Origin: Ascidiella aspersa
Lineage: Eukaryota
Reading direction: 5' to 3'
DNA: 64,000 bases
Assembly (NCBI GenBank): GCA_963924565.1
Contig: OZ004611.1
Span: 21,328,001 to 21,392,000 of the forward strand
Both the position numbers and the translations under genes were made by a program. Positions 52,484-60,046 of this stretch are shown here, one piece after another. Under the pieces are notes generated by a model. It was not told the origin of the DNA. It searched no databases and saw only the letters and a list, made by a program, of their open reading frames with translations. Within the stretch, counting starts at the first letter, position 1; every line of letters starts with the position of its first letter.

Positions 52484-52952
52484 TTAACAAAGTTCGCAAA
52501 CAAATTTGCCATCCTCTTTACTCCATCCACTACATGCTTCATGTGCCCATCGTTTACATTGGGAGCACTGGATCCACTCATCGCCAGTACAAGAAAAAGA
52601 ATACAATTCGTTGCAGTAGAAACACTCTGGGTCTTCTGTTAAAGCACGTTGCATCGACGAAGCTTGCTTCCTTCGTTTTGTAACTTTCTTGGATGCAGTC
52701 TTTACATTTTTCTCTTCTCACGAAAGACTGCTTAGATACGGGCGACTTAGACGCTGCCAAAGTGTTCTTGTAGGGAGAACTTGTAAACACGGTGGCACAT
52801 CCTCTTTTGCGTGATTTTCGCATTTCTGTTTTTTCTTGATATGCATTTGGGAGTGGAAAGATATGGCCTTTGATGTCCTGAATCTACTTTATGTGAGGTT
52901 GAAGGAATGTCGTTGCCGTTGATATTATGAATATTAACAGATAGCGGTAGGG
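52484..52952 (-). pseudogene. C-terminal part of a pogo/Tigger-like DDE_1 transposase with a PHD-type finger
   Basis: Minus strand reads ..SPYKNTL.. and CFYCNELYSFSCTGDEWIQCSQCKRWAHEACSGWSKEDGKFVCELC*; frameshifted; joins 60047 onward across the insertion. Confidence 0.8.
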
Positions 52953-53209
52953 GGCGCTGGTCTAGAATCCTACCACTTTTTTTTTTTTTTTTTTTTTTAG
53001 CGCCAGAAGGTACAGTAGCAAAATTTAGTTTTTTAAATGTAAATTCAAAAGGTAACAATAAAGCTGGTTAGGCTGGCCATATTTTTCCCAAAGGTGAAAG
53101 CATTTTCCCAATAAATTTGTACAGGGGGGTATTATCTTGCAAGTGGCGACACTTGGCGTATTTTATTGAAGGTTCACGGTCATATATGTTTGCATTATTT
53201 TGCCCGAAA

Positions 53210-54353
53210 ATTTAAAATTGTGTAGTTGCCCTTGTGCTGGGTCTACCCTAATGATAAACACACCGTCAGAAAGAGCCAACCCTCTTCTGCACAGCGAGAG
53301 CAAAAATAAACCCCTATATGCATAGTGCGACGCCTAGCGGAACTCTTAGCGTACCCTATATTATAAAATACTTGCCACTAGGTGGCAGCACAGAAACTCC
53401 GATCGAGTCTTGAGGTAGCCTTATTCTATTCTTGAAACGTAACTATAAGTGCTTAGTACATTAGCCTTTCTTTACAGAGTCGATTCTTTGGGGGTAATTT
53501 TGATGAAATATCTACGGCCGCCTAGCATAGGAAATTGCATTGACGTGCGCAAGTCTAGAATCCTACCACAATATTTCGGCTTTTTGCCCGAATTTAGATT
53601 TGTGTAGTTGCCCTTGTGCTGGGTCTACCCTAATGATAAACACACCGTCAGAAAGAGCCAACCCTCTTCTGTACAGCGAGAGCAAAAATAAATCCCTGTA
53701 TGCATGGTGCGACGCCTAGCGGAACTCTTAGCGTACCCTATATTATAAAATACTTGCCACTAGGTGGCAGCACAGAAACTCCGATCGAGTCTTGAGGTAG
53801 CCTTATTCTATTCTTGAAACGTAACTATAAGTGCTTAGTACATTAGCCTTTCTTTACAGAGTCGATTCTTTGGGGGTAATTTTGATGAAATATCTACGGC
53901 CGCCTAGCATAGGAAATTGCATTGACGTGCGCAAGTCTAGAATCCTACCACAATATTTCGGCTTTTTGCCCGAATTTAGATTTGTGTAGTTGCCCTTGTG
54001 CTGGGTCTACCCTAATGATAAACACACCGTCAGAAAGAGCCAACCCTCTTCTGTACAGCGAGAGCAAAAATAAATCCCTGTATGCATGGTGCGACGCCTA
54101 GCGGAACTCTTAGCGTACCCTATATTATAAAATACTTGCCACTAGGTGGAAGCACAGAAACTCCGATCGAGTCTTGAGGTAGCCTTATTCTATTCTTAAA
54201 ACGTAACTATAAGTGCTTAGTGCAATAGCCTTTCTTTACAGAGTCGATTCTTTGGGGGTAGTTTTAATGAATTAGCTACGGCCGCCTAGCATACGAAATT
54301 GCATTGACGTGCGCAAGTCTAGAATCCTACCACAATATTTCGGCTTTTTGCCC
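53210..54353 (+). repeat. Three tandem 382-bp units (left arm)
   Basis: tgtagttgcccttgtgc recurs at 53221, 53603 and 53985. Each unit contains gtctagaatcctaccac, the element's terminal motif. Confidence 0.95.
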
Positions 54354-54354
54354 A

Positions 54355-56760: not shown

Positions 56761-56799
56761 CATACGGTGCGCTATAATTGAACTTGCTTTACCAAAGCG

Positions 56800-58678
56800 T
56801 TGATAAACGTGACCAGTTGCTAGAAAGTGGTCAAATGGTTAACGAAAGCATAAGAGAATACGTTTGCGAAACGATGGCGAACAAGCGTACCCAGACGGCG
56901 GCGACAAGCCTACAGTAAAAAATGAGGTTATGTATGGTTCTACTGCGCGGCTTGAGCGACAGAACACTCGCCACTGCAATTAGTAAGAACGTGTCAAAAA
57001 AGCGCGACTTTACTAAAGCCGTATAGATGGCTAGGCCTAGAATTGCGTGCTAGCCCTCACAGAATGTAGGCCAAATTAGCAATAATGCTACGACGGAGAG
57101 TGTTTCTGCAGACCCCGTCTTATACCCATTCAACCCGGCGCCTCCCCTCCATATGGATTCCGTACCTCTCCCTTATTGGATGAAACGGTTGTCCGGAGGT
57201 GGTAGCTCTCCCATATTCACTCTAACAAATAAACGGTAGCTTAAAGCATTGACATGGGTATAACTTTATTCTGAGTTTCTGGCCTGAAAAAAAAAATAAA
57301 ATAAAAAAAAAAACAGCTTTCCGAAAGGAATTCCAACGCCAAATAGGGGATTTTATGGAAACGATCGACCATTTACGACAAGAGGTAGCCGACCTTCGCT
57401 CCGGCTATTACCAGCCACTGGACCAGGACGCTAGCAGGTTTGACCTCGGTGATTTACCTAAACAGTCTATCGTACAAATCGCATCTGGTCAAAGGCCTCA
57501 TTCCTTCGTTAATATTATGATAGAAAACCTCTCAGTGCGCGCCCTTGTTGTTACGGGTTAGCAGTTACCATCATACGAGAAAGGTATGGAACTGTTTGAA
57601 GGCTAAAGTTAAACGTAACCTGTCGTAGTGTCCCGAAATCCTGTCATTTGCCCATGCCACAATAGGTCACAAACTAAACACACCCATGTTATTGTAATGA
57701 CCGCGGAAGCGTGGACTTTTCTTGTTCTACCCAACAGAGCGTCAGCTTCGTATGCCCAACTGAAGAAAACCACAAGAATTTTACAGACGAAATTGAAATT
57801 GGTGGCGGTCTTACAACAAGCGAGCTCGCACGGATACAGACCTTTTGCAACATGGTCACAGATCGTTTGCGACCCACTCTGCAGAAATAGGACGAACTGA
57901 TCTCGTCGAACATGTGATTAACACCAGAGATGCTCGCCCAGTGGACCAACCCTTTCGTCGGATGGCACCACCGGAGAAGAAGAAAGTGGACGAAATCGTC
58001 TACGAGATGAAGACCCAAGGTTTTATACGTCCATCGTCATTCCCATGGTCGAGCCCGATAGTACTCGTGAGGAAAAATCAGATGAAACTCGTTTTTGCAT
58101 TGATTATCGGGGCCTAAATGAGGTGACAAAGAAAAACAGCTACAGTAGACCGAAGCCTCGATATTTTATCTAACTCCACCTATTTTAGTAGCCTACACTA
58201 TTTAAAATCTGCGTATTGGCAAATTCCTATGGATAAGACTTCCCGCGAAAAGGACCGCTTTCGCGAGCCACATGGGTATGTTCGAGTTCAATGTGATGCC
58301 AATGGGTCTTTGCAATTCCGCTGCTGGTTTCCAGCGACTAATGCGTATTGTTTTGAATGGCATAGAACGGCGTCTTATTTTGCCATTGAATGTGTGTTAC
58401 CGCAGTGGAAAGAGGGAAAAGAACATCTCATAGCCTATGGCAGCAGAACTAAATCAGGACGAAATTATTCCACGAGGCGCAAAAAATTATTAGCGGTCGT
58501 TTATGCCACCAAGTTATTTCGCTGCTATCTCCTAAGACAAGGTTTTACTTTGCGGACTGACCACGCTTCTCTCAATTGGCTATATCAGTCCAAGGACCTC
58601 TATGACCAGTATGCGCGATTGGTCCAGCAACTGTTTTAATCAAATACATCAGTGTCAAACATAAAAAGGCAGATGGTC
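56800..58678 (+). pseudogene. Decayed Ty3/Gypsy relic 2 from a different lineage, no LTRs
   Basis: Protease-like VRALVVTG*; RT N-terminus HVINTRDARPVDQPFRRM..IRPSSFPWSSPIVLVRK..FCIDYRGLN; RNase H IAYGSR..NYST..LLAVVYA..FRCYL..FTLRTDHASLNWL. Confidence 0.85.
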
Positions 58679-59790
58679 TTTGCGCACGTCAATGCAATTT
58701 CTAGGCGGCCGTAGCTATTTCATTAAAATTACCCCCAAAGAATCAACTCTGTAAAGAATGGCTAATGCACTAAGCACTCATAGTTACGTTTTAGGAATAG
58801 AATAAGGCTACCCCAAGACTCGACCAGAGTTCCTGTGCTGCCACCTAGTGACAGGTATTTTATAATATAGGGTACGCTAAGAGTTCCGCTAGGCGTCGCA
58901 CCATGCATATAGGGGGTTATTTTTGCTCTCGCTGTACAGAAGAGGATTGGCTCTTTCTGACGGTGTGTTTATCATTAGGGTAGACCCAGCACAAGGGCAA
59001 CTACACAAATCTAAATTCGGGCAAAAAGCCGAAATATTGTGGTAGGATTCTAGACTTGCGCACGTCAATGCAATTTCGTATGCTAGGCGGCCGTAGATAT
59101 TTCATCAAAATTACCCCCAAAGAATCGACTCTGTAAAGAAAGGCTATTGCACTAAGCACTTATAGTTACGTTTTAGGAATAGAATAAGGCTACCTCAAGA
59201 CTCGATCGGAGTTTCTGTGCTGCCACCTAGTGACAGGTATTTTATAATATAGGGTACGCTAAGAGTTCCGCTAGGCGTCGCACCATGCATACAGGGGTTT
59301 ATTTTTGCTCTCGCTGTACAGAAGAGGGTTCGCTCTTTCTGACGGTGTGTTTATCATTAGGGTAGACCCAGCACAAGGGCAACTACACAAATCTAAATTC
59401 GGGCAAAAAGCCGAAATATTGTGGTAGGATTCTAGACTTGCGCACGTCAATGCAATTTCGTATGCTAGGCGGCCGTAGATATTTCATCAAAATTACCCCC
59501 AAAGAATCGACTCTGTAAAGAAAGGCTATTGCACTAAGCACTTATAGTTACGTTTTAAGAATAGAATAAGGCTACCTCAAGACTCGATCGGAGTTTCTGT
59601 GCTGCCACCTAGTGGCAAGTATTTTATAATATATGGTACGCTAAGAGTTCCGCTAGGCGTCGCACTATGCATATAGGGGTTTATTTTTGCTCTCGCTGTA
59701 CAGAAGAGGGTTGGCTCTTTCTCACGGTGTGTTTATCATTAGGGTAGACCCAACACAAGGGCAACTACACAATTCTGTATTTTCGGGCTA
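58679..59790 (-). repeat. ~2.9 inverted copies of the 382-bp unit (right arm)
   Basis: Reverse complement of the left-arm units; the innermost copy is the most diverged. Confidence 0.95.
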
Positions 59791-60046
59791 ATAATGCAAA
59801 CATATATGACCGTGAACCTTCAATAAAATACGCCAGGTGTCGCCACTTGCAAGATAATACCCCCCTGTACAAATTTATTGGGAAAATGCTTTCACCTTTG
59901 GGAAAAATATGGCCAGCCTAACCAGCTTTATTGTTACCTTTGGAATTTACATTTAAAAAACTAAATTTTGCTACTGTACCTTCTGGCGCTAAAAAAAAAA
60001 AAAAAAAAAAAAAAGTGGTAGGATTCTAGACCAGCGCCCGGTAGGG

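Follow-up and report, generated by a model that had tools for sequence, protein, structure and literature searches.

Two nested Gypsy fragments inside a probable transposase-less Merlin element with long tandem-repeat arms in Ascidiella aspersa

Introduction

Merlin transposons have been described as elements with 5'-GG ends, 8-bp target-site duplications, a DDE_Tnp_IS1595 transposase and companion MITEs (miniature inverted-repeat transposable elements), and tandem repeats have been reported inside them (PMC8101967). In the part covered of the PMC8101967 S1 Table, the Repbase zebrafish entries Merlin-2_DR, Merlin-1_DR and Merlin-N5_DR are 4-14 kb long with arrays at both ends; terminal inverted repeats (TIRs) of 1,000 bp are listed for Merlin-1_DR and Merlin-N5_DR, and Merlin-2_DR combines a conserved DDE motif with 79-bp arrays of 12.5 and 9.7 copies. 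That part of the table mentions neither interior cargo nor introns for the zebrafish elements. Here, we report on an element located in a 64,000-nucleotide stretch of the Ascidiella aspersa genome, hereafter the window (C5:21328001-21392000 of the 308-Mb assembly). This element is very probably a transposase-less member of the Merlin superfamily with long tandem-repeat arms, which contains two dead, nested Gypsy fragments and has likely been cut and pasted by the intact transposase of a sister copy.

As far as PMC8101967 describes them, the members of the Merlin superfamily, including Merlin1_CI and Merlin1m_CI of Ciona, share with the window family the GG ends, the 8-bp duplication, the DDE_Tnp_IS1595 transposase and the MITEs. 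In contrast, arms are at least 1.4 kb long here, versus 24-462 bp in the first Merlin description and 155 bp in the Ciona entries, and the window family is distinguished by four predicted introns and by its nested Gypsy cargo. The zebrafish Merlins are similarly built with tandem arrays at both ends; however, by their table description, the longest repeat period near their ends is 44-225 bp, whereas the units of the window family measure 382 bp, each with a near-copy of the terminus, and arms reach 8 units.

Two foldback transposons provide further points of comparison. Galileo of Drosophila has the same foldback form, with extended TIRs containing tandem repeats, and its accessible description reports other elements inside 33 of 191 copies and TIRs less diverged than the interior (PMC4168063). 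It belongs to the P superfamily, with a 7-8 bp duplication following a consensus, while the present element is a Merlin whose 4.3-kb dead interior has been amplified as a subfamily. The multicopy Pack-TIR element Ssk-FB4 likewise illustrates how a foldback multiplies its interior by repeated transposition; in the sections covered, the cargo of Pack-TIRs is a copy of host sequence from a parent locus (PMC8277862), whereas here it is retrotransposon DNA with long terminal repeat (LTR) junctions, and a parent locus was not found among the 40 of 187 candidates scored. Merlin is not mentioned in the covered main text of PMC8277862, nor in the covered part of PMC6431247.

A foldback element with a Merlin transposase in sister copies

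The element spans positions 52953-60038 (7,086 bp) between two copies of CGGTAGGG, and both of its ends begin with GGCGCTGG. Its arms align with 1,316 of 1,357 identical columns (97.0%), each combining a 24-bp terminus, a T run and an outer segment of roughly 200 bp with some three units of 382 bp (3.0 and 2.9 copies according to Tandem Repeats Finder). Every 382-bp unit contains a 21/23 match to the terminal motif, devoid of the end GG, and the number of units varies across copies from none to 8 per arm. Its long, modular inverted arms of roughly 1.4 kb contain tandem repeats whose copy number varies, and this gives the element the organization of a foldback transposon. The first-pass annotation, which had described the 8-bp duplication, the GG termini and the near-identical inverted arms with about three units each, is thus borne out.

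That annotation had also suggested a Merlin/IS1016 affiliation and a search for an IS1595/Merlin DDE frame between the same termini. Such a frame exists. A PF12762 (DDE_Tnp_IS1595) profile search of the genome returned 10 matches from 13 candidates, 7 of which lie inside four elements with the same arms, with matches above the cut-off in sister copies; C7:15305970-15321317 is a fifth transposase-bearing copy. The sister copy C4:2195647-2208625 (12,979 bp, duplication CCCGTTTA) has the same arms and a predicted five-exon gene (C4:2206024-2207539) with GT-AG introns, whose stop-free frame encodes 302 amino acids. This frame aligns at 44% over 284 columns with a 322-amino-acid PF12762 protein; the alignment is gapped at residues 46, 187 and 224, exons meet at 64, 124, 179 and 220, and the DDE triad (D147, D211, E247) is conserved in homologues. 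Four N-terminal cysteines are common to this protein and two homologues; separately scanned exons gave no Zn_Tnp_IS1595 Pfam match and a weak Zn_ribbon_TFIIB match (E 0.009), a domain listed for Merlin-1_PBa in the covered part of the PMC8101967 S1 Table. In the window copy, no transposase homology was found, and this copy is non-autonomous.

Other sequences related to the transposase are older and broken, with 66-77% DNA identity (C5:6.75-7.83 Mb and C3:10.80 Mb), and two unrelated PF12762 matches lie on small contigs (C11:957-1364 and C52:65484-65738). A further copy, C9:10263616-10274904, contains beside its right arm (local positions 5287-6534) a 416-amino-acid open frame with an RVT_1 domain, located in an interior of about 6 kb which is not common to the other copies compared. 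The motifs of this frame are presumably those of a Penelope-like reverse transcriptase with a GIY-YIG domain.

Copies, MITEs and the length of the duplication

The outer arm segment has 71 candidates in the genome, 40 of which were scored and all 40 matched. The terminal 24-mer occurs exactly 2,369 times, versus 0 for the control, and the first 100 places listed are mostly pairs about 200 bp apart. All 16 long copies with two ends have GG-ended terminal inverted repeats, starting with GGCGCT and ending with GCC. A perfect 8-bp duplication, counted from the GG boundary, flanks 8 of them and 7 of 8 bases agree in 3 others; perfect duplications of 5, 6, 7, 9 or 10 bp were found in none of the 16. 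Similarly, 14 of 15 MITEs of about 200 bp with the same ends, hand-picked on C1 from these first 100 places, are flanked by a perfect 8-bp duplication, and none by a perfect 6-, 7- or 9-bp one. The tally of duplication lengths over other copies, which the first-pass annotation had advised, therefore gives 8 bp, within the 8- or 9-bp range of Merlin elements. Its alternative, a 6-bp duplication (GGTAGG) with GGG termini, is excluded by the boundaries and duplication lengths of the other copies, in which the base preceding GG is G in only 5 of 16 cases; the empty site by itself cannot separate the 6-bp from the 8-bp reading. Use of the internal motif copies as ends was also considered and rejected, a duplication beside them being found in none of 13 one-ended copies. 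Within the window, a 186-bp MITE with the same termini lies at 10582-10767 and has no clear duplication.

On C3, left and right ends located 303 kb apart share one 8-bp flank, and a third end, which lies in an inverted duplicate spanning 7.4 kb or more (98.7%), has the reverse complement of that flank; the three ends are at C3:14266766, C3:14341926 and C3:14570079. A Merlin element is likely present at the breakpoints of a rearrangement.

In one MITE compared with the long elements, the terminal 24 bp are the only common part, and they would be what the transposase recognizes. The near-terminal motifs in the 382-bp units may serve as extra binding sites, and the number of units may shift through slippage or unequal exchange.

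Recent movement

Seven DNA reads (6 starts) from a 2026 DNA set join position 52944 to position 60039 with one copy of the target, and the same joint occurs in 1 RNA read. An empty allele therefore exists in samples under the species label of the best-matching read set. Read depth inside the element is several times that of the flanks, as expected for a multicopy family. The element has been recently mobile, and the duplications together with the empty allele are indirect signs of transposition by the predicted Merlin enzyme.

It has been stated that most foldbacks are Mutator-like, with 8-10 bp duplications (PMC4079207, part covered), and long repeat arms are prone to misassembly. A Mutator- or P-type foldback, a Gypsy pair inserted at the window locus only, or an assembly artefact is nonetheless scarcely credible. 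The gene between the same arms encodes DDE_Tnp_IS1595, the scanned frames of the window and of three relatives contain no MULE (Mutator-like element) or P domain, and no perfect 7- or 9-bp duplication flanks any of the 15 MITEs. The cargo recurs at many loci, many dispersed copies have duplications of their own, and the empty site is seen in reads. The structure consequently withstands the concern over misassembly raised in the first-pass annotation.

Several observations weigh against the reading of a Merlin element moved by the transposase of a sister copy. The transposase is intact in only one of the five bearers examined, the other four being broken, and the C4 exon model is a prediction, which leaves transcription and activity putative. 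Because the 382-bp units of the C4 copy differ by 5-7% from those of the window, the mover of the window element may be another copy. Four of the 16 two-ended copies have no duplication (at most 4 of 8 bases) and one has 6 of 8, and of 6 MITEs encountered incidentally in the regions retrieved, just 2 are flanked by a perfect 8-bp duplication.

Two nested Gypsy relics that moved as a unit

The arms enclose 4,320 bases of cargo. A Pfam scan of 35 window frames gave matches in 6, including two series on the + strand: 1) DUF7041, RVT_1, RT_RNaseH and a below-cut-off Integrase_H2C2, and 2) a below-cut-off RVT_1 followed by RT_RNaseH. No LTR pair was seen in a self-comparison of the window, in agreement with the two decayed LTR-less Gypsy relics initially described. 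The border between these relics, Gypsy A and Gypsy B, was set at 56768/56769 because free copies of each stop there. Armless, LTR-bearing copies exist for both families, one free B copy having paired 454-bp LTRs that are 97.4% alike.

Among 45 other regions, fetched because they matched the arm or the cargo, 8 contain 4,000 or more of the 4,320 bases of cargo with 1.2-4.8% divergence. Since these 8 loci hold nearly the whole cargo, it has moved as a unit. This agrees with one half of the proposal in the first-pass annotation of a captured cargo moved as a unit; the other half, a Pack-like capture, is less likely in view of the LTR junctions of an older Merlin copy, C1:20257850-20265858. In this copy, whose cargo is 12% divergent from that of the window, the 5' LTR of B coincides exactly with the A|B junction and that of A is located 160 bp inside the arm, both junctions being clean. 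As both 5' LTRs are kept there, Gypsy B was nested in A by retrotransposition, and the LTR-less state of the window lineage results from later deletion. The annotation had further opposed recent arms to an old cargo. The arms are not younger among close copies: compared with the copy at C3:19.96 Mb, the window cargo differs by 0.6% and the 382-bp units by 1.6-5.5%.

The older C1 copy has a 1-bp frameshift in A in common with 5 of 6 copies of the window lineage, whereas 3 free copies lack it. Within the window lineage, the pooled ratio of nonsynonymous to synonymous substitution rates (dN/dS) is 0.84 for B (0.99 and 0.77 in its shifted frames) and 1.10 for A, with shifted frames covering 0.64-0.99; between the window lineage and free copies, it is 0.52 for B and 0.62 for A, versus 0.90-0.99 in shifted frames, all these ratios resting on non-independent pairs. 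Because within-lineage values resemble those of shifted frames, the cargo was dead while carried, although one within-lineage pair, at 0.57, runs counter to this.

Repeated entry of Gypsy B and the origin of the cargo

The phylogeny of B, from which three segmental duplicates were excluded, comprised 31 rows and 1,548 columns. In it, the B sequences of the transposase lineage cluster with free C7/C9 copies (100/99), and those of two older Merlin copies cluster with another free copy (99/97). A single clade for all Merlin-borne B was rejected by the approximately unbiased (AU) test (p-AU 0.016). Between Merlin lineages, dN/dS of B is 0.36-0.57, versus 0.76-1.16 in shifted frames, and three lineages have three different B junctions. 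Collectively, these comparisons suggest repeated entry of B into the family, two entries being well supported and three likely, and one origin for all Merlin-borne B is rejected on the AU test and the between-lineage dN/dS. Caveats attach to this rejection: the group in the AU test was defined once the first tree was known, separate entries could be mimicked by gene conversion, and support for placing the old C1 copy with the window lineage is just 65/5. The C4 copy, considered as a clean empty site of B in a second lineage, is ambiguous, as its state may result from a later deletion. Targeting of Merlin by Gypsy B is unsupported, since B is not rare, with 279 LTR candidates and 32 internal matches. 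An array of segmental duplicates at C7:2.4-5.5 Mb, each with an LTR-bearing Gypsy B, accounts for most of the top LTR matches.

How A arrived is less constrained: it may have inserted into Merlin or may have been captured with host DNA, and both routes stand. According to a Pack-type scenario, a Merlin copy took up, through gap filling or template switching, host DNA already containing the nested A|B pair, before multiplying. Capture by template switching has been described for the FB4 foldback (PMC8277862, sections covered), and the 160-bp spacer that separates the arm from LTR A in the old C1 copy is a dispersed repeat, only 70-73% like other places, rather than clearly Merlin interior. Furthermore, the B piece of the transposase lineage is LTR-less, is bounded on either side by an internal breakpoint and stands in place of some 700 bp of interior. 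However, clean LTR starts occur within 160 bp and about 35 bp of the arm in two lineages, the cargo is entirely transposon DNA, and no armless A|B junction locus was found among the 40 of 187 candidates scored, free A and free B lying apart. Such a capture is therefore unlikely, though it deserves consideration.

Under the preferred reading, that of a transposase-less Merlin with nested Gypsy fragments, Gypsy B would first have retrotransposed into Gypsy A, the A|B pair would then have come between Merlin arms, and deletions would have removed the LTRs and any transposase, after which the dead cargo would have been passively copied. Gypsy B would also have entered two other Merlin lineages at other sites.

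RNA signal and the hairpin question

About 6% of one stranded-looking RNA run was read. Cargo reads fall mainly at 55885-56815 and near 57121-57216, on one strand, while arm reads are few; both flanks show a low one-strand depth of 0.5-5. At 55885, an AG acceptor, reads start with loose ends and with other sequence before, and a GT..AG joint is present in 2 reads. The alleles of the 55885-56815 reads match a one-armed copy at C3:14.34 Mb at 9/9 positions, its duplicate at 8/9 and the window at 1/10. Given the acceptor start and the GT..AG skip, this one-armed copy may have its dead cargo included in a spliced transcript.

It was proposed in the first-pass annotation that read-through transcription could make the element a mobile source of small RNAs against Gypsy, and selection could then have kept it as a hairpin or PIWI-interacting RNA (piRNA) precursor silencing Gypsy. 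The insertion site can be transcribed, as indicated by the flank depth and the RNA read across the empty site, the family acquired Gypsy B two or three times, and B is antisense to the transposase gene in transposase-bearing copies. Yet a two-armed hairpin would have a stem of arm sequence only and would leave Gypsy in its loop; Dicer products would therefore correspond to Merlin and not to Gypsy. In addition, the cargo decays neutrally and loses pieces freely, the strongest cargo RNA matches a one-armed copy at all diagnostic positions, and, as B is not rare, its repeated entry needs no selection. Retention as a small-RNA source is thus improbable. A broader scenario would be just as much of a long shot: the Merlin family as a recurrent mobile Gypsy trap, in which fragile repeat arms would draw pieces of active retrotransposons (one Gypsy family three times), a live transposase would spread them and RNAs from some copies would silence the donor.

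Features of the element and its surroundings

The features of the element and of the adjoining flank are collected in Table 1. Elsewhere in the window, an intronless frame resembling a mitochondrial CCA-adding enzyme (698-2263, - strand) and an Arf-family GTPase frame (9320-9850, - strand) correspond to ordinary host genes, and two open frames of 541 and 597 amino acids (31626-33251 and 34916-36709, + strand) have no Pfam matches.

Table 1. Positions of the element, its parts and the adjoining relic in the window (RT, reverse transcriptase)
Feature	Position	Strand	Remark
Left target-site duplication CGGTAGGG, 8 bp	52945..52952	+	Single copy at the empty site in reads
Left terminal 24 bp, 5'-GG	52953..52976	+	Only part common with a ~200-bp MITE; likely transposase end signal
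Left arm, made up of terminus, T run, ~200-bp outer segment and three 382-bp units	52953..54356	+	
382-bp tandem array, 3.0 copies; near-terminal motifs at 53547-53569, 53929-53951 and 54311-54333	53198..54353	+	
LTR-deleted Gypsy A relic with DUF7041, RT, RNase H and integrase zinc domain	54360..56768	+	
Gypsy B relic with 5' LTR deletion: internal part as far as RT and RNase H, truncated by the arm	56769..58679	+	
Right arm, inverted copy of the left; 2.9 382-bp units at 58680-59776	58680..60038	-	
Right terminal 24 bp, identical to left	60015..60038	-	
Right target-site duplication CGGTAGGG	60039..60046	+	
Flank: DDE_1 (pogo/Tigger-like) transposase relic adjoining the insertion point	60154..60567	-	PF03184, E 6e-9

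Significance

Merlins with kilobase tandem-repeat arms are already known from Repbase, and the present family is an ordinary but unusually complete transposon family. Literature searches on Merlin foldbacks, Ciona foldbacks and hitch-hiking LTR fragments, with subscription papers and Repbase outside their scope, did not return a description of it, and no transposition assay for a Merlin was found in the literature search. In one genome, an intact gene, together with MITEs, large non-autonomous copies and an insertion that is polymorphic, ties the foldback structure to a Merlin transposase. As a ready transposition substrate, this family could make the end requirements of Merlin, its cargo limits and the role of repeat arms testable. 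Moreover, a DNA transposon here multiplies dead retrotransposon DNA, a process which would mislead Gypsy copy counts and dating.

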